Shown piece by piece: positions 41,460 to 63,999 of a DNA stretch of 64,000 nucleotides. Position numbers and translations under genes: made by a program. Each line of letters opens with the position of its first letter. Position 1 is the stretch's first letter. Location of the stretch: positions 1 to 64,000 of the IMG/VR virus record IMGVR_UViG_3300042448_000816, one strand, 5' to 3'. Source of the stretch: a virus. The notes below the pieces were generated by a model. That model was not told the DNA's origin, ran no database searches, and saw only the letters and a program-made list of their open reading frames with translations.

Positions 41460-41785
41460 TAAAACTTTACTCCATGTCTTTCTGGTCGTGACTTATTAAA
41501 ACTAGTCTTATTGTTTAGAGCTACCTGTAGCTCTTGGTCGACATATCCATTATCCACCAATCCTTGGTATAAGTCAAGTGTTCTGATTACAATGTCTGCC
41601 ATTTCGTCAGCGACTTCTTGCTTTCCCTTATTTTTACGAATGGCTTCCATGACCTCTACTGCTTCTGACACAATCATCATTAGCTGTTTAGTAATAAAAA
41701 TATCGTCTACCTTCTCAGGCCAGAAGCCTTTTTCTACTGCAGTAGTATGAATTTCTTTTGCCATATCGTCTAGCCTGTTATACAT
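41459..41785 (-). CDS. MazG-like nucleotide pyrophosphohydrolase
   Basis: SE..E..EA.RK..EMAD.VIR.LD..N.SR..RHG motif. Confidence 0.85.
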   Translation of the reverse strand: MYNRLDDMAKEIHTTAVEKGFWPEKVDDIFITKQLMMIVSEAVEVMEAIRKNKGKQEVADEMADIVIRTLDLYQGLVDNGYVDQELQVALNNKTSFNKSRPERHGVKF

Positions 41786-44700
41786 CTTTTACATCCTCCA
41801 TAATTATTGTTCCATCTTTTGTTTTTCCGAAAGAGAAGCTATATGCAGACCCCTCTTGAACTTTCATATATGCCTTTGGAAAGGCTGTTGGGAATACCGT
41901 TACTGAGTGCAGGTTTCTAGAACTATCTGCAAGTGTTAGTGAGGCCATCTTCTTGCCAGCCTTGGTGATCCTTGGCTTAAAGGAAACAACAAACATGTCA
42001 TCATCTTTGTAAGGTAGCTGCTTGTATCCCAAAAACTTTACAAGGGCATTACTGGATTGTTTAATTTCATCCACAGGGATAGCAGTAACAATCCTATTGT
42101 TATCGCATAGAAGGAGGTAACTCCTACCAGCCTCAATAGTGGTTTGCTCTTCATCAAATATTCCTACGCTTCCAGTCTTATCTAAGACTTCTACACGTGA
42201 CCAACCTTTTCCACGCTTAATAGATTTTACCATACCCATCAAGACAAATGCTCCCTTTTCTTCAAACTCTTCTATTGGATTAATGAAGGCATAGTAGTGA
42301 GAAGGAACCGTGATGTTGAACTCTGGAAGGTTCAAAAACTCATAAAGATTTTCCTTAATCTCTTCTTCGTTTCTTGGATTGTCTTCAAAGGTAGCTGCAC
42401 CAATTACACGCAACGCCTGTAGAGATCTAGTGTTTACGCCACTACCCTTGGCAAGAGTAAACTCTTCCAAATGCTTATAGCTTTTGAATGGTCTTTGAGC
42501 AATGTACTTTGCAGCAATGTTATCAGAGATAAACTTAATAGCAGTTAGCCCAAAACGAATTCCCTTACCCTCAATCTTAAAGTCTGCATCAGAGTCGTTA
42601 ACGTGAGGTAGCTTAACAGAGATACCCATACGCTTAGCTTCAATAAGATACTCTGTTCTAGTATCCTTATCCTTTTCATTCTTTAGCAAAGAATACATAA
42701 ACTCTAGTGGGTAGTAATACTTCAACCATGCTGTCCAATATGAAAGAGTCGAGTAAGCCACAGCGTGAGACTTGTTGAAGGAATAGCCTGCGTGTGCCTC
42801 AAAGTCTTGCCACAAATCTCTTGCAGAGTTAGGAGCCATAAACTTAGAAGCTCCATCAATAAACTTATCCTTAAACTTGTCAAACTCTTTGGCGTCCTTC
42901 TTCTTACCGATGATCTTACGAACTTGGTCTGCCTCTGCCATCGTCATTCCGCCAAGCTCTGTACAGGCTTGCATAACCTGTTCCTGGTACAAGATACATC
43001 CGTAGGTCTCCTGAGTAAAAGCTTTCATGACCTGGTGGTGGTAACTAATATTTTGTTTACCGTGCTTACGAGCAATGTAATCTTTACCAATAGTATTCAT
43101 AGCACCTGGACGAACTAGAGCGTTGGATGCAGCTAGCTCAGCAAAGTTTTTAATACCCATCTTTACAAGCAGGTTAGTATAGGGAGTGGCTTCACACTGG
43201 AACACACCCTTCGTATATCCAGAAGAAAGCATTTCATAAACTTTTTGGTCTTCCATATTTACAGAAAGCAGCTCAAGCTTTTTGTTATGCCTTTGCTCAA
43301 TAATTTTAAGTGTGTCCTGAAGAACACTAAGAGTCTTTAGTCCTAGAGCATCAATCTTAATTAAACCAATACGCTCTGCCTCTGCCATGTCTACTGCAAC
43401 TACAGGAATTCTTTCGTCTGATCCAGGAGATGATCTGGTTTCCATTGGTGCATACCTAAAGATTGGCTCCTTGGATGTTACAACTCCAGCTGCATGAATT
43501 CCCGTACCACGAATTCTTCCACGAAGCTGTTCTCCGTATCTTTCAATCTCTGGATACTTCTCACGAAACTCTGCAGTAGACTTTGATGTGCAGTATTCAT
43601 CCCAAGTGTCTACAAGCTTCATAACCTTGTTTACGTCTGGAAGAGGAATGTTTAGCACACGGGCAATGTCTCTCACAACACCCTTATCTTTGAAAGATAG
43701 GAAAGTTGCAATAGATGCAACGTGACGATATTGGCGGACAAGATAATCTTTTACTTCCTCACGACGGTTGTCCTGAATGTCCGTATCAATATCTGGGAAG
43801 TCGTTACGTTCTGGATTAATAAATCGGAAGAACAGTAGTCCGTGTTTGATTGGATCAATATCTGTAATCCCAAGAGTGTAGCAAAGAAGTGAGCCAGCAG
43901 AAGATCCACGTCCTGGACCAACCATGATGTCTTCTTTCTTTGCCCACGCAATCATAGAGCGTACGACAAGGAAGTATGGTCCAAAGTTTTTATCTTTGAT
44001 AACCTTAAGCTCTTCGTCTAATCTTTCTAGATACTGTGGGTCTGCCTCTAGTCCTCTAGCCTTTAAACCTTCTAGGGCTAGTGTCTTTAGCTCTTTGTCT
44101 GGGTCTTTGTATTGAACTGGCAAAAGGTTCATGTGGTCTTGGATGTTATAATCCTCGATCTTATTAGATATCTCAATTGTATTTTCATACATGTCATCTC
44201 TATCAATACCCTGAGCCTCCATGGCAGAACGCATCTCTTCATTAGATAGCAAGTGAATATCAAACTTGTTAAAACTCATCTGTCTGTCTGCACCATACAG
44301 ATAATCTAGTCTGTCCATAAGGTTATCAAACTTTTTAGACTTGTCGTATGTAGCATCCTTTTCAACCTTGTTAGAGTAAGTGTTAAGGATAAGCTTTAGC
44401 TCTTGAATTTCTTTTTGCTCTGGACCTGAGTGGTGACAGTCTGGAGTTACTACGGGCTTGATGCCAAATTCATCTGCCAATTCTAAGATTGTTTTGTTCA
44501 TCTCTGGTGGATTGTGTGGCATTACCTCAAGGTAATAGTCATCACCAAAAGTATCTTTACACCACTTGATATGTGTTTTAGCAAAGGCTAGGTTTCCTGC
44601 CTCAATTGCCTTAGCCAATACTCCACTAAGACATCCAGAGGTGACTACGATACCCTCTTTATACTGTTCTAAAACTTTCCAGTCAATTCTTGGTTTCTTG

Positions 44701-45056
44701 AAAAATCCCTCAGTCCAAGCAATCTCATTTAGTTTGTTTAGGTTTTCTAGACCTTTAGGATTCTTGGCAAGAAGGACAAGGTGGTTATAAACAAGGTCTA
44801 GTGGCCCTGTTCTCTCGTCTTTATCACGACGGTCAAAACGATCCTCCGTTATATATCCTTCTACGCCAAGTATTGGCTTGATGCCCTTTTCTTTTGCAGC
44901 ACGGTACATCTCTCTGTGACCAGACAAAGAACCGTGGTCAGTGATTGCAATAGCGGACATCCCTAGTTCAGATGCACGATCTACATACTCTTGTGGAGTT
45001 GCGATTCCATCAAAGAGTGAGTAGTGCGTGTGAACGTGTAAGCCAACATACCCCAT
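41778..45056 (-). CDS. dnaE: DNA polymerase III alpha subunit
   Basis: PHP domain (HVHTHYSLFDG, ITDHG); GRGS, PDIDTD, HAAGVV, KIDALGL, YQEQ and FNKSH motifs. Confidence 0.96.
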   Translation of the reverse strand: MGYVGLHVHTHYSLFDGIATPQEYVDRASELGMSAIAITDHGSLSGHREMYRAAKEKGIKPILGVEGYITEDRFDRRDKDERTGPLDLVYNHLVLLAKNPKGLENLNKLNEIAWTEGFFKKPRIDWKVLEQYKEGIVVTSGCLSGVLAKAIEAGNLAFAKTHIKWCKDTFGDDYYLEVMPHNPPEMNKTILELADEFGIKPVVTPDCHHSGPEQKEIQELKLILNTYSNKVEKDATYDKSKKFDNLMDRLDYLYGADRQMSFNKFDIHLLSNEEMRSAMEAQGIDRDDMYENTIEISNKIEDYNIQDHMNLLPVQYKDPDKELKTLALEGLKARGLEADPQYLERLDEELKVIKDKNFGPYFLVVRSMIAWAKKEDIMVGPGRGSSAGSLLCYTLGITDIDPIKHGLLFFRFINPERNDFPDIDTDIQDNRREEVKDYLVRQYRHVASIATFLSFKDKGVVRDIARVLNIPLPDVNKVMKLVDTWDEYCTSKSTAEFREKYPEIERYGEQLRGRIRGTGIHAAGVVTSKEPIFRYAPMETRSSPGSDERIPVVAVDMAEAERIGLIKIDALGLKTLSVLQDTLKIIEQRHNKKLELLSVNMEDQKVYEMLSSGYTKGVFQCEATPYTNLLVKMGIKNFAELAASNALVRPGAMNTIGKDYIARKHGKQNISYHHQVMKAFTQETYGCILYQEQVMQACTELGGMTMAEADQVRKIIGKKKDAKEFDKFKDKFIDGASKFMAPNSARDLWQDFEAHAGYSFNKSHAVAYSTLSYWTAWLKYYYPLEFMYSLLKNEKDKDTRTEYLIEAKRMGISVKLPHVNDSDADFKIEGKGIRFGLTAIKFISDNIAAKYIAQRPFKSYKHLEEFTLAKGSGVNTRSLQALRVIGAATFEDNPRNEEEIKENLYEFLNLPEFNITVPSHYYAFINPIEEFEEKGAFVLMGMVKSIKRGKGWSRVEVLDKTGSVGIFDEEQTTIEAGRSYLLLCDNNRIVTAIPVDEIKQSSNALVKFLGYKQLPYKDDDMFVVSFKPRITKAGKKMASLTLADSSRNLHSVTVFPTAFPKAYMKVQEGSAYSFSFGKTKDGTIIMEDVKDV

Positions 45057-59029: not shown

Positions 59030-62000
59030 CAGAACCTATTGCTCCTTATTCTTTGAGAATCAATGTTGCGAATCTGCCCCATTACAGTTTGTGCAATTGC
59101 GTTAGGGTCTGACTGAGAAGCAACATTTACGCTCAAGTTATAATTATACACTGAACTGGAAGATATTGGGGTAACTTGACTTGATATTACAGAACCCTGG
59201 CTAATTGAAACTGGAGAAACTTGAGTATTAAAGCTTGGAGAGCTAAAGTTTTGTGCAGTAGGCCCCCCTGAGAATGATCCCGCTGAGAATGAGCCAGAGT
59301 TAATACTATCAAACAGCTTGGTTCCAAGTTCTTTGACTCTTTGAGATTTTACAACATATTCTCCTGGAGAAAGCATTGCTGGAATTGTGTCTGTGCCCCT
59401 GCTTACTAGGCCTCCATTAGCAAAGTATCTTGGCATCCATTCTGAACGATTTTGGTAGCCACCAAGGCCAGGTACGCTTTGACGATATGATGGAGTAAGA
59501 TCAGGTCTTCCTTCACGAATTAAACCATCTATCATTTCTCTATTGTAGTCTTTACCTTTTAATTGCTGGAATCCAGTTTTTGCTCTTATACCTTGACCAA
59601 TATCAAAGTGATAGATTTTCTGACCCGTTGCTCTATCGGTTGTTACTCTCACAAGCTTCATGTTTTGACCTCTTGCAAGAAGTCCATCTACTACGTTAGA
59701 AGCTGGCGTTGGAAGTATTTTATTTATGTCTTCTACACCTGGAATGTCTGACTTTACGTTAAACTTATACAATGGGTAAAGCGGTAATCCATTACCTCCA
59801 CGTCTTCCTCCAGTTTGAACAGTTCCTTTAGCCATTCCCTCTAAAAACTCTTTACTTGAAGCAGTTGTAACTGACATAAACCTATCTAGGGTAACTGACT
59901 GACCTGGTTTTAAAAGTTTTAAAATTTCAGCATCTGACTCATTGGCCACTCTAACTAGAGGAGTTCCCTTTGAAATTCCAAGACTATTAGATTTAATTAT
60001 ATTGTCAATGAAGGCTCTGTTGCGATCATAGCTACCAAACAATGTGTGTGCAGCGTTGCGAACATAGCCATCCATTGTTGCTATTTCATCTGGGTCTTTA
60101 AGAACTTGGGGATTTGGGTTACGCTTAAAGTTTATAAAGTTTTTTAATGCAGATGTATTCTTGGTTGCTTGTGTTACAGCTTTAACTCCTGTTGAAACAC
60201 CCCTTCCTCCAGGAATAAAGTTTAATGCTCCCAGTCCAAGAACCATAGCGTCTGCTGATGTAGCTTTTCCTTGACCTACATTTATTAGAGATTTTGTAAT
60301 GTCAATGCCTTCTTTTGCCATTGAAATAAGGGGAGAAATTTTTGCTCCAAAGTCTAAAGCTTTTTCAAACATAGATGGTTTAGGTGTTGCTGCTGGTGGT
60401 GGGGTGTCGTAACCTCTGCCTGATGGTTTTGCAGCTAATGCCCTTCTTTCAGCTGCATCTGCTGAAATCCTACCTACTGGTTTTGCTGGGGTAGACTTAG
60501 AAGATCTACCACCATCTCTCATCATTCCACCCATCTTAAATCCTGGAAGCTCTCCAGAGTTAATAGAGTCTAAGAATCTTTGACCAAATTTGTTTACAGA
60601 AGCAGCCTTAATTACGTATTCACCATTAGAAAGCATAGCTGGAATTGAATCGGAAGTTCCCGTTCCTGGTCCAGAAATAAGACCGCCAGCGGCGTACCTG
60701 TTTCCGTAGGGATCAAACATTGCCCCTACTCCTATTTCACCGCCCCAAGGTCCGAAAGATGGGTTCCAAACATCGGGAGGAAGGGATGAAACTGAAAGAG
60801 CTATAAGTCTGTCAGCTTCAGCTTTTGTTACTTTTGAAAGAAACTGTGCAAGTCTTCTGTCTCTTGCATCGGCACCGCCGCTATCTGCCCCAGCAGCCTT
60901 TAAGGCTCCAGCCATAACTGGGGGATGAATATTCATTTGTGCTCTAAGTCTTCTTCCGTGAGAATTTGGTTCTGGGAAGGTAATAGTAGGCTTATCAGGA
61001 ATAATTTCATCTTCTTCTTTGCCACCATCGTTATAGGTAGTTGCGGGAGGAACCGCACCGTCAGTAACAGTCTGTACTGTTAGGGTAACAACTTTACTTT
61101 GAATTCCTGCCCAAGCATCCTTTACGTCTTGAACAACTGCAAGGGCTTTATCCATATCATCTTTGTATCCAGCACTGCTTATTCTTGCTAGATCAATACC
61201 ATTTTTTATGTTTTCCCATTCAGCCTTTGTTCTTCCCAAAACTTTTTCTTCTTCGAGTTTTGCTTCTAGCTCTAGATCAGCCAGCCTGACTCTTTCTGCT
61301 GCTGGCTCCAGAGCACTCTCTTCAATTTCAAGTATTTGATTTGTAAGCTGTTCAATTCTTTCTTCTATTTCAATTCTGGATAGTCCAGCTTTTCCTCTAA
61401 TTGATTCAAGTAATGATTGTCTACCCTCGTTAAGTGCGTCAGTCTGACCTGTAAAGTATGAAGAAGCTGAGCTCTCTCTTACATCTTGAACCGCTCTTGC
61501 AGCAGCAGCAAGGTCTCCACGAGTAATTGCTTCTGCTACTGAAAGCTTGCCCTTTTCTTGGTCTAGTACTTGCTGGTTTGCCTTACGAACCCTCTCTAGT
61601 GCCTCTAGCTTTTCATCGTAGGTTTTATTAATAGCATTCTCTTGATCTTCAATACCTCTAAGATCTGCATCATAGTCATCAAGCTGGTATCTTATTGCAT
61701 CTATTTGGTTTTGAGCGTTTTCAATAATTGCTTGGTCATTAGCTATCTTGAATTCGTATTCTAGAGTTAGCTTTCTTTCTCTAACATCAAAAGATTCCAT
61801 TGCCCTGTTAAAGCCTTCTTCAAATACATCTTGAAGTCCTTCTGGGGTTAGTCTTGCAGCTTCTTCCATAGCTGCTTTAGCATTTCTAAGCTCAGCAAGC
61901 ATTGTGTTAAGCTGATCTCTAGTTACGTTTCCAGTTGCCACTGCAGAAGCTACGGCTGCGTCTTCTACGGCTTCATAGGCTTCTGCAGCAGAGAATCCAG

Positions 62001-63999
62001 CAGCTCTTAGTTGATTAAAAGCTAGTACTTGGTTTCTTGATTCCTTTGCAGATTTTTGCTGATTGCTAACATACTGTCCTAAAGCAACTGCAGCCAAAGC
62101 CTTGCCAATATTTTGTAGCTGTGCTTTAAATCCTATAATTTCTCCAGTTTGCTTGTCAAAGTTAAACAGGGTATTCTTTTGTTTTTCAAAGTCTTCTGGG
62201 CTCATTCCAGCTATTAGGCTAATTAGATCTTCTTCGGCACCTAGCCTTCTCATGTCGTTTTCAATACCGCTGAAAAGATTAATTCCAGCTCCGCCACCAA
62301 AGAGTTTGTTGATGGCATCAGCCGAAGCCTCAAAGCCCTTTGCTACAGAAATTTGGTTTTTACGAATGTCTCTTAGCTTCTTTAGAATGTCATCTAGAGA
62401 AGACGCTGCTGGCCCACCGCTACCGCCACCAGGATCTAAGTCTTCATCTATAGGAGCTGTAGTATTATCTTTTTCTGTTTCGGTAGTTATAAAACCACTG
62501 TCTAAAGCAAAATCTGTAAATTCTTTATCTTTATTTCCTGGTTCGTTTAGCCACTCTCTATACTGGTCCATCATGGCTTCGTCGCCCTGAAGAAGCATTG
62601 TTGTAACAAATTGGGTCATAAAGGTTTTTTGAAAATTGTCTGGCAGCCCATTGAAATATTGTTCATATTCTTTGAAGTTGTCCATATTTTCTTCACCGAT
62701 AAGATCGGTAATAACATCCATGCCCATTTTACCGTCAACAGAGTCTATGATCTCTTTCATTTCCAACATCTTGTCGGCGGCACCTTCATTTTCATTTAGG
62801 TATGTTAGAACTATTTCTGCATCTAGCACCCTAGATACTGACTCAAACATTTCTAGATATTTTCTAGCTTCTTCTGGAACATCGGATTTTGCAGCAATAT
62901 TTGCCACAAAGTTTGTTTGCTGATCTAGAAGTGGCTCACCATTTTCATCTTTAAACATTTTCATTACGTTAAGGGTTCTGTTGGTATCTGCGTTGCCCAG
63001 ATTATCCATTAGAGTAAAGGTTTTTGTCATCATGTCTGCGTCTGATCCAAAAACGTTCATAAGTTCTGAAATTACTAGAGGGTCTAGGTCACTGGCTAGT
63101 CCGACAGTAAGCATGTATTCTTGAGTCTCGTTTAGTCCACTTGCATCAATTACTTGTTGTCTGGCTCCCATAGCAAGAGCTAGACCTTCGGGATCGTCTG
63201 CAAACCTATTTTCTATACTCTTTTTTGCAGCATCTTGTAGGGCCATTTTTCCAGAAAAGTCTGCACCCTCAAAAGAGCTGGCTATAGCTGCTCGTGTTTC
63301 TGCTCCTTGTTCCAGCAAAGCTGATCTGTCTATCATATACTGGTTTGTAAGACGTTCAGCTTTTGCTAAGTCTCCTGCAGCTTCTGCTATAGAAATTCTT
63401 TTTTCATAGTCTAGGTCTAGTGAGTCCAAAAGTTGCTGCTGTTGCTGTAATGCCATTTTTGAGCTTGCCACAACAGCTGCAGAAGCAGTTCCCATGTTGG
63501 CAAAAGCACTAACAACTTTTGGTCCAGTGATTGCAAGACCCGCAATGGTTCCTGCAACTCTACCGATAGTAGCACCTATTGCAGTTCCTGGACCTGGAGC
63601 AATTGCTGTTCCTATTGCTGCACCCGCAATAGATCCACCCTGCATCATAGCCCCAGTTGAAAGGGCTGCATAGCCCAATTCTTCAAATGGATTTGGAAGT
63701 TCTTGTAGTTTTTGTGCTACAATACCTATCTGTTTTTCACTATCTTGAGCAAGATTTAGTCTGATGGTTAATGGGTCTTCTAAAAGGTTTTCCCCGTTTA
63801 TTCCAAGAAGCTGTACGAGCCTTGCATTTACATTTAATCCAAAAGAAGTATCTCCAATTTCTTTTGCTATGTTAGAAACAATACTTCTTGCCTGTCCAGC
63901 ATCTAAAGCTCCAGAAGATACGGCATTAACAAGCTGAGTAACTAGCTGATCCTCTGTAGCAGCTCTTCCAAGCTTAGAAATGTTTTCTCTAGTTGCAGC
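59029..63999 (-). CDS. Tape measure protein (5' end outside the window) with a C-terminal ADP-ribosyltransferase-like cassette
   Basis: Frame checked open to the window edge; long helical coiled coils; two GGL..GT.D.IPAMLS.GEYV repeats; precedes the tail-tip genes. Confidence 0.88.
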   Translation of the reverse strand, partial: AATRENISKLGRAATEDQLVTQLVNAVSSGALDAGQARSIVSNIAKEIGDTSFGLNVNARLVQLLGINGENLLEDPLTIRLNLAQDSEKQIGIVAQKLQELPNPFEELGYAALSTGAMMQGGSIAGAAIGTAIAPGPGTAIGATIGRVAGTIAGLAITGPKVVSAFANMGTASAAVVASSKMALQQQQQLLDSLDLDYEKRISIAEAAGDLAKAERLTNQYMIDRSALLEQGAETRAAIASSFEGADFSGKMALQDAAKKSIENRFADDPEGLALAMGARQQVIDASGLNETQEYMLTVGLASDLDPLVISELMNVFGSDADMMTKTFTLMDNLGNADTNRTLNVMKMFKDENGEPLLDQQTNFVANIAAKSDVPEEARKYLEMFESVSRVLDAEIVLTYLNENEGAADKMLEMKEIIDSVDGKMGMDVITDLIGEENMDNFKEYEQYFNGLPDNFQKTFMTQFVTTMLLQGDEAMMDQYREWLNEPGNKDKEFTDFALDSGFITTETEKDNTTAPIDEDLDPGGGSGGPAASSLDDILKKLRDIRKNQISVAKGFEASADAINKLFGGGAGINLFSGIENDMRRLGAEEDLISLIAGMSPEDFEKQKNTLFNFDKQTGEIIGFKAQLQNIGKALAAVALGQYVSNQQKSAKESRNQVLAFNQLRAAGFSAAEAYEAVEDAAVASAVATGNVTRDQLNTMLAELRNAKAAMEEAARLTPEGLQDVFEEGFNRAMESFDVRERKLTLEYEFKIANDQAIIENAQNQIDAIRYQLDDYDADLRGIEDQENAINKTYDEKLEALERVRKANQQVLDQEKGKLSVAEAITRGDLAAAARAVQDVRESSASSYFTGQTDALNEGRQSLLESIRGKAGLSRIEIEERIEQLTNQILEIEESALEPAAERVRLADLELEAKLEEEKVLGRTKAEWENIKNGIDLARISSAGYKDDMDKALAVVQDVKDAWAGIQSKVVTLTVQTVTDGAVPPATTYNDGGKEEDEIIPDKPTITFPEPNSHGRRLRAQMNIHPPVMAGALKAAGADSGGADARDRRLAQFLSKVTKAEADRLIALSVSSLPPDVWNPSFGPWGGEIGVGAMFDPYGNRYAAGGLISGPGTGTSDSIPAMLSNGEYVIKAASVNKFGQRFLDSINSGELPGFKMGGMMRDGGRSSKSTPAKPVGRISADAAERRALAAKPSGRGYDTPPPAATPKPSMFEKALDFGAKISPLISMAKEGIDITKSLINVGQGKATSADAMVLGLGALNFIPGGRGVSTGVKAVTQATKNTSALKNFINFKRNPNPQVLKDPDEIATMDGYVRNAAHTLFGSYDRNRAFIDNIIKSNSLGISKGTPLVRVANESDAEILKLLKPGQSVTLDRFMSVTTASSKEFLEGMAKGTVQTGGRRGGNGLPLYPLYKFNVKSDIPGVEDINKILPTPASNVVDGLLARGQNMKLVRVTTDRATGQKIYHFDIGQGIRAKTGFQQLKGKDYNREMIDGLIREGRPDLTPSYRQSVPGLGGYQNRSEWMPRYFANGGLVSRGTDTIPAMLSPGEYVVKSQRVKELGTKLFDSINSGSFSAGSFSGGPTAQNFSSPSFNTQVSPVSISQGSVISSQVTPISSSSVYNYNLSVNVASQSDPNAIAQTVMGQIRNIDSQRIRSNRF

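Follow-up and report, generated by a model that had tools for sequence, protein, structure and literature searches.

The subject of this analysis is the gene of a tape measure protein (TMP) in the IMG/VR virus record IMGVR_UViG_3300042448_000816 (112,370 bp, rated 100% complete, G+C about 40%), and in particular a domain that lies within the TMP between two copies of a sequence module near its C-terminal end. The DNA analysed, referred to below as the window, comprises 64,000 nucleotides, positions 1-64,000 of the record. The 5' end of the gene is open at the window edge, and the full open reading frame (ORF) was therefore read from the record; its product was designated P0036 (Table 1). The product is the TMP of a long-tailed phage of about 112 kb. 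In Pfam, PF10145 (PhageMin_Tail) matched it at E 1.9e-23, 14 PHROG families matched it as well, most of them named 'tail length tape measure protein', and a PDB profile search with the family profile retrieved the TMPs 8zdo and 8rk3. The family domain, the length and mostly helical character of the protein, and its position among tail genes are all those of a TP901-type (PF10145) TMP; on its 3' side, the gene is followed by genes for a 255-aa protein, a 1640-aa minor tail protein, and tail fibre or collar proteins, and small ORFs lie upstream. A Pfam search with the whole of P0036 returned only PF10145 and a weak DUF3626 match, and no N-terminal MuF (Phage_Mu_F) head domain.

A duplicated end-module brackets an insert

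The original prediction held that a TMP motif recurs on both sides of an insert, and two copies were indeed located, one (...GGLISGPGTGTSDSIPAMLSNGEYV) starting at 60696 and the other (...GGLVSRGTDTIPAMLSPGEYV) at 59427. Both matched one module of several PHROG TMP profiles (as '2 stretches'), and both were matched by a module hidden Markov model (HMM) built in this analysis. The copies, termed B1 and B2, are thus real, but they are longer than had been claimed, the similarity between them spanning about 48 amino acids and reaching ...FLDSINSG in one and ...LFDSINSG in the other. The repeat exists in the protein only: as proteins the copies are about 50% identical, whereas their DNA has just a run of about 20 nucleotides in common, with no long repeat. 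The duplication is therefore old, and has been kept at the protein level.

Four copies of the module are present in the full TMP, their IPAML positions being aa 687, 1096, 2921 and 3341, i.e., two pairs, the first of which lies past the window end. Many columns of the module are invariant across eight TMPs, and a pattern scan found it encoded in at least 509 IMG/VR contigs. Among 73 TMP ORFs drawn from 80 of these loci, the usual state is a single module, 60-90 aa from the C-terminus, and about 30 of the ORFs have two or three; gp16 of mycobacteriophage Douge also has two copies. In the Douge TMP only the last 42 residues are resolved, and these fill the lumen of the baseplate hub (PMC13033339). 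By analogy, the C-terminal tail that follows B2 is probably a plug sitting in the baseplate hub. As a separate observation, tandem peptide units (GG[LM]V.P.YFA / GGLATNKFA) stand ahead of B2 in our TMP (window 59401-59440) and in the relatives P0004, P0009, P0010, P0011 and P0016, their copy number varying from one in our TMP to about five.

The insert between B1 and B2 measures about 375 aa and consists of a linker, an adaptor and a globular domain. All the short strings that had been quoted from this region were recovered exactly where they had been placed, namely DAMVLGLGAL at 60252, AFIDNIIK at 60015, TPLVRV at 59964, DRFMSVT at 59886, LYKFNV at 59772 and NVVDGLLARGQNMKLV at 59697.

Table 1 Features of the tape measure gene and of its insert; positions refer to the window except where the genome is named
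Feature	Position	Strand	Remarks
Whole TMP gene, 3458 aa (P0036)	genome 59029-69405	minus	Full ORF read; uninterrupted over 10.4 kb
TMP C-terminal 1656 aa	59029-63999	minus	5' end open at window edge; frame without stops
Module B1, first copy	60547-60696	minus	GG..SGPGT.TSDSIPAMLS.GEYVIKA..V.KFG..FLDSINSG
Basic, Pro/Ala-rich linker	60373-60546	minus	Predicted disordered; pLDDT < 50 for model residues 1-59
Three-helix adaptor ('hairpin')	60202-60372	minus	Ends in GLGALNFIPGGRGVS; helices are model residues 61-110, pLDDT about 60-70
Predicted ADP-ribosyltransferase-fold domain, about 210 aa	59503-60135	minus	Model residues 140-350; P0036 aa 3091-3301
Arg3152 (LVRV), candidate NAD-binding Arg	59950-59952	minus	First strand; model Arg201, strand 198-202
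Ser3178 (F-M-S-V-T), candidate 'STS' Ser	59872-59874	minus	Second main strand; model Ser227, strand 226-230
Asp3240 (N-V-V-D-G-L-L-A-R-G), candidate for catalytic-Glu position of ExE/QxE	59686-59688	minus	Model Asp289, directly before strand 290-292
Module B2, second copy	59293-59427	minus	Located by motif; module HMM matches
TMP C-terminal tail (...SVYNYNLSVNV...IDSQRIRSNRF)	59032-59292	minus	Kept among relatives

The adaptor remains constant while the payload behind it changes, being common to TMPs with ADP-ribosyltransferase (ART), DUF3626-like, ParB-like and unknown payloads, and the left junction of the payload swap described below falls just behind it. It was not detected in any of the 73 scanned TMP ORFs, and on sequence grounds it is a family-specific segment. 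The original prediction had called this segment 'pre-toxin-like', which proved to be an analogy only, since there was no Pfam match at E<=10 and no recognised pre-toxin domain (PT-TG, PT-HINT, VENN and the like), nor was its hydropathy that of a classical transmembrane segment. A classical transmembrane hairpin was likewise rejected, as the adaptor reached a maximum 19-aa Kyte-Doolittle value of 1.09, against 1.67-1.77 for the two real hydrophobic segments of the TMP.

A predicted ADP-ribosyltransferase-fold domain

Structure was predicted for the insert on the basis of a 24-sequence alignment, and residues 140-350 or so of the model formed a confident globular domain, with a predicted local distance difference test (pLDDT) score of about 90. 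The domain is larger than the 165 aa or so originally proposed for it (Table 1). When the model was compared with the PDB by Foldseek, 136 matches were obtained at E<=1e-3 (best E 1.5e-8), and the top of the list contained only C3 exoenzymes, Certhrax, Plx2A, CDTa, iota Ia and VIP2; anthrax lethal factor (LF) was also among the structural matches. Matches in BFVD were viral ARTs, i.e., Alt-/Mod-like proteins, VIP2-like proteins and 'Phage head morphogenesis' fusions, none of them named tape measure. In a protein-language-model atlas, the nearest clusters were those of PF03496 (score 0.95, 176 shared features). The model has the split β-sheet core and the N-terminal helices of the ART fold. Overall, model, two structure searches and atlas agree with the R-S-E (C3/VIP2) fold named in the original prediction, and by these predictions it is nearly certain that the insert domain has an ART fold of this kind.

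To judge the residues, conservation was evaluated in an alignment of 22 sequences of the family, the most distant at about 30% identity. Arg occupied the Arg3152 column in 21/21 sequences covering it, and Ser the Ser3178 column in 22/22, with Phe or Tyr two residues earlier in 19/22; the Asp3240 column had Asp in 20/22 and Glu in the other 2/22, and two residues before this acid stood Val in 19/22 and Gln in 1/22. The three positions, which had been singled out from the single sequence, are thus among the best-conserved of the family, making up three of only 14 near-invariant columns among 180. The alignment also bears out that Asp stands at the putative catalytic Glu position and that STS reads as SVT: the aromatic-x-S-T-S motif appears as F-M-S-V-T, the middle Thr being Val and the last position Thr or Ala.

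In the model, the strand with Arg201 is followed by a helix, the strand with Phe225-x-Ser227-Val-Thr, another helix, two strands and a loop, and then by Asp289, its short strand, an A-R-G-Q turn and two long strands. The arrangement is canonical, and its last part parallels the Q-L-E-M-L-L-P-R-H... segment of C3 (c-st phage record); by strand order, Arg3152 corresponds to the conserved strand-1 Arg of R-S-E ARTs. From Asp289 to the last aligned model residue there are 31 residues, and from the catalytic Glu to the aligned C-terminal end there are about 30 in C3, 33 in VIP2 and 33 in ExoS. From the strand order and these end distances, we infer that Asp3240 is the equivalent of the catalytic Glu.

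It is to be noted that a catalytic Asp does occur in an active ART, as D175 of HopF2 is required for activity (PMC4263708). The domain is probably an active R-S-D variant, catalysis being somewhat more likely than not. If so, an R-S-D branch that is missed by current HMMs would join the ART superfamily.

Payloads are replaced among relatives

Relatives of the insert were collected by a HMMER scan of 1.84 billion representatives, which found 30. Nearly all of them are long TMPs or TMP fragments, and three are small proteins without the module. Two of these small proteins, P0025 and P0027, have the same C-terminal end (...MEDFP[KR]Y); they appear to be stand-alone ART-domain proteins, the shared ending suggesting a natural C-terminus. 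A Gly-rich hydrophobic segment at the N-terminus of P0025 (LPLYFIPGVGQLL...GAGGRG) recalls the adaptor.

In several relatives, the linker and adaptor occur without the ART payload. The payload of P0009, P0010 and P0026 is DUF3626-like and related to slot 1 of P0036, described below (E 1e-9 to 1e-12). Behind the same adaptor, P0024 has a ParB-like domain (...LVDGHHRLA..., aa 554-609 approximately), for which the Pfam match to ParB_N was weak and below the cut-off (E 0.006). P0028 carries a payload of about 400 aa whose kind is unknown, and the ART recurs in P0029 and P0033 in a divergent form. A metagenome locus scan added one locus, L092, in which a DUF3626-like domain and an ART stand in tandem within one slot; a scan of viral contigs with ART-domain patterns yielded no confirmed locus.

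The clearest case is the pair P0004, with an ART, and P0010, with a DUF3626/SopF-like domain. The two proteins are 96-100% identical over about 1200 aa, fall to 16-37% across the payload, and return to 85-100% up to the C-terminus. At the protein level, the only one at which they were placed, the junctions lie directly after ...GVKAARQG and directly before ...KGGLATNKF..., i.e., at the edges of the payload domain (the hairpin end and the GG-rich prelude of B2) and not in the modules. The proposal that the flanking repeats are the substrates of swapping fails on this evidence, and the modules were rejected both as a recent DNA duplication and as recombination substrates, since they are about 50% identical as proteins, share no long DNA repeat, and the junctions lie elsewhere. 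A second replaced region was seen further upstream in the same pair (P0004 aa 351-765 versus P0010 aa 141-516), with 15-43% identity inside a backbone of 90-100% identity.

Our own TMP is a mosaic in the same sense: its linker shares 93% identity with that of P0009, where another payload follows, and P0004, which differs in B2 and tail, has an ART 81% identical to ours. Outside this family, an unrelated IMG/VR TMP (L041:4100-4690) has an M23 peptidase (Peptidase_M23, E 1e-27) in the same module bracket, the domain beginning 35 aa past the module; Peptidase_M23 also follows the module in L011:4145-5335 and L040:8684-9583, the E values across the three loci ranging from 1e-27 to 1e-19. Other short brackets, in L025, L037, L050, L056, L063 and L069, had no Pfam match.

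As in polymorphic toxins, then, a conserved carrier has unrelated enzyme domains replaced at a fixed junction. Whether the slot is exchangeable among relatives had been set as a check of the original prediction, and the protein comparisons, with the clean swap between P0004 and P0010, make it highly probable that it is polymorphic.

Other slots and neighbouring features

The first pair of modules, at aa 687 and 1096, brackets slot 1 (L002:8173-9234, minus strand; genome 66172-67233, past the window end), which holds a DUF3626/SopF-like domain. Its Pfam score is borderline (26.4 bits, where the cut-off is 27; E 4.3e-6) and its atlas score is 0.91; motifs in it are RYKSVFET, YGY, TFTYGDS and FFEAQIMGG, and copies with 45-49% identity occur in five IMG/VR contigs. 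A PDB profile search gave no match for this slot, its AlphaFold2 model was too poor to be used (mean pLDDT 41.8), and global alignment of the domain with long TMPs was unreliable. DUF3626 is a domain of Salmonella SopF (PMC6682159), which ADP-ribosylates ATP6V0C (PMC8820735). Thus, the TMP may carry two different NAD-using enzymes, a suggestion that rests on the borderline HMM score. After module A2, a non-coiled region of about 400 aa (P0036 aa 1135-1560 or so, genome 64700-66000 approximately) without Pfam match was also observed, which may be a third payload-like domain.

Farther from the slots, Gly/Ala/Met-rich hydrophobic stretches of glycine-zipper-like appearance occur mid-TMP, at P0036 aa 1690-1740 and 1905-1985 approximately (the latter at window 63450-63700 or so), and are likely to form the membrane channel; at P0036 aa 551 and 1718, Kyte-Doolittle values over 19 aa are above 1.6. 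Replication genes are present, the phage encoding its own DnaE and DnaB machinery. The DnaE-like DNA polymerase III alpha (window 41778-45056, minus strand) is 54-56% identical to those of the Streptomyces siphoviruses Wakanda, Muntaha and BillNye (about 121-130 kb); it hints at an actinobacterial host, despite the G+C content, although any host assignment is a guess.

A proposed carrier of an exchangeable effector, and its alternatives

At infection, TMPs leave the virion and come to span the cell envelope, the C-terminal end leading in siphophages (PMC13033339). The explanation of the whole that we favour, by a modest measure, is that this TMP is the carrier of an exchangeable ART effector delivered at infection. 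The TMP would come out of the tail lumen before the DNA, with its C-terminal end in front, and the ART domain would reach the cytoplasm and modify a host target with host NAD+, for take-over or counter-defence. Such action would precede any phage gene expression, as does that of T4 Alt from the head. Related phages would exchange payloads by recombination at the domain borders, the interchangeable payloads being the ART, the DUF3626/SopF-like putative ART, the ParB-like domain and one unknown, with the M23 peptidase in unrelated TMPs. Cytoplasmic delivery, taken as a step by itself and argued by analogy, has about an even chance of being correct. No cognate immunity gene adjoins the cassette, which is in frame within the TMP and has a tail gene as its next neighbour, and no Macro-domain or ARH hydrolase was found in the genome. 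The latter finding offers the proposed enzyme no reversal partner and in that respect counts against it; nonetheless, the lack of a detected immunity or reversal gene agrees with an effector aimed at the host, and not with a toxin-immunity pair.

Other findings also weigh against an effector. First of all, no sequence profile recognises the domain: Pfam hmmscan gave nothing at E<=10, and PF03496, which had been suggested as a check, matched neither the domain nor the genome in six frames at E<=10, the same model scoring 186.5 bits for C3 and 126.9 bits for T4 Alt as controls. PDB sequence searches with the domain were empty, PDB profile searches (A2, A3) returned just TMP modules and coiled coils, and the insert had no match in Pfam, PHROGs, PDB or GenBank phages (megablast, tblastn); hhalign of the family profile with a single C3 sequence gave an uninformative probability of 0.4%. 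Since sequence methods see no relationship, membership of PF03496 in the HMM sense fails. Secondly, the equivalence of residues to those of known ARTs is drawn from the strand order in the model, and not from residue-level superposition. The canonical ExE/QxE is absent as well, the catalytic position being Asp; and with Val standing two positions earlier (Gln once), the E/Q that positions the acceptor is missing. Finally, the adaptor is too weakly hydrophobic for a classical transmembrane helix, which leaves the route into the cytoplasm unexplained, and three folded 23-kDa domains must fit, or unfold, inside the tail lumen.

Part of this evidence would also suit an ART fold that is dead and has a structural role in the tail tip or channel, like the degenerate VIP2-like domain of anthrax LF. 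Asp takes the place of the catalytic Glu, the first Glu is missing, STS is S-V-T, no ART profile matches, and LF itself is among the structural matches. Dead domains, however, usually lose their catalytic residues, whereas here the triad positions are near-invariant down to about 30% identity, two lineages have Glu at the acid position, and HopF2 works with a catalytic Asp. That near-identical backbones hold unrelated enzymes also argues against a fixed structural role, and we regard a dead domain as unlikely. The same low likelihood is given to an NAD+ glycohydrolase that would act at entry, blunting NAD-dependent host responses or excluding competitors, since the best structural matches are all transferases, loss of NAD+ would hurt a large phage with its own DnaE and DnaB replication, and there are at most three copies per virion.

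An action of the domain outside the cytoplasm, be it at the wall or at the surface of the membrane, in the manner of the peptidoglycan hydrolases of other TMPs, is quite improbable. The M23 peptidase in the same bracket of other TMPs speaks for this location, as does the C-terminal end of the TMP, which exits first and meets the envelope (PMC13033339). Against it, the DUF3626/SopF-like and ParB-like payloads also have intracellular substrates, and the slots considered here have an extra conserved adaptor that was undetected in the 73 scanned TMP ORFs, including the M23 carriers L041, L011 and L040. NAD+, moreover, is an intracellular cofactor. An artefact of assembly or gene calling, i.e., a chimeric contig or a fused ORF, would be conceivable in a metagenome-derived virus record, but has a negligible probability and was rejected, as the frame is unbroken over 10.4 kb in a genome rated complete, and the order module-adaptor-ART-module-tail recurs in one frame in contig L092 and in a large number of independent proteins from metagenomes.

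An exchangeable effector, as favoured above, would add to what is known of enzymes in virions. ARTs are known to be delivered from phage heads (T4 Alt, MuF-VIP2 fusions), and tape measures are known to contain enzymes that degrade the wall; a literature search found no paper linking TMPs with ART domains. An NAD-using effector in a tape measure would join these two lines, especially with swaps between near-identical phages. If it is true, ready-made activities for take-over or anti-defence can travel on the first protein that leaves the virion, and evolve by cassette replacement; a handle would also be gained on two questions, namely the depth to which segments of the TMP enter the cell and the way in which the tail lumen houses folded domains. 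More tentatively, and with the odds somewhat against it, the TMPs of a clade of large siphoviruses (possibly with low-GC actinobacteria as hosts) could be multi-slot polymorphic effector injectors. Each slot, bracketed by the duplicated end-module, would then hold an exchangeable cytoplasm-acting enzyme (C3-like R-S-D ART, SopF-like ART, ParB-like and others) that precedes the genome into the cell and disarms or reprograms the host, and the tail ruler would be the phage counterpart of toxin delivery by the type VI secretion system (T6SS), contact-dependent inhibition (CDI) or Rhs.

Comparison with known systems

The closest relatives in fold, C3 exoenzyme, VIP2 and iota Ia (PF03496), share only about 12-16% identity with the domain, which has no HMM match, an Asp as its acid, no upstream E/Q, and S-V-T. 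ARTs of the HopF2/AvrPphF/EspJ type resemble it in being active with a catalytic Asp (HopF2 D175, PMC4263708); they are, however, type III effectors of plant or animal pathogens, and were absent among the listed structural matches. For the adaptor, a parallel is found in the T6SS effector Tde1, in which an N-terminal Gly-rich helical region is needed to cross the target membrane and resembles the C-terminal parts of Burkholderia TMPs (PMC10240207). Here too, a short Gly-rich helical region precedes a toxin presumed to act in the cytoplasm, and by this analogy the adaptor may aid membrane passage like the glycine-zipper region of Tde1, although it is only modestly hydrophobic.

Among phage systems, siphophage TMPs with M23 or lysozyme-like domains are similar in that an enzyme is inserted near the TMP C-terminus, M23 having been found in the same bracket (L041); those hydrolases act on the cell wall, whereas ART, SopF-like and ParB-like domains would need cytoplasmic substrates. 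T4 Alt is likewise a phage R-S-E mono-ART and a virion protein delivered before phage gene expression, and Alt-like proteins were among the BFVD matches. Alt, however, is a separate, head-packaged protein that matches PF03496, in contrast to the in-frame, internal TMP domain seen here, which is profile-less and has Asp for Glu. A further parallel lies in the MuF-toxin fusions, polymorphic toxins of phage heads such as the MuF-VIP2 ART of actinobacteriophages, in which the toxin domain varies among relatives (PMC7302621). In both cases, a structural protein of the virion bears a VIP2-like ART, and the payload is variable; the MuF carrier is a head protein with a C-terminal toxin, whereas here the carrier is a TMP and the payload is internal, bracketed by a duplicated module, with at least two slots per protein.

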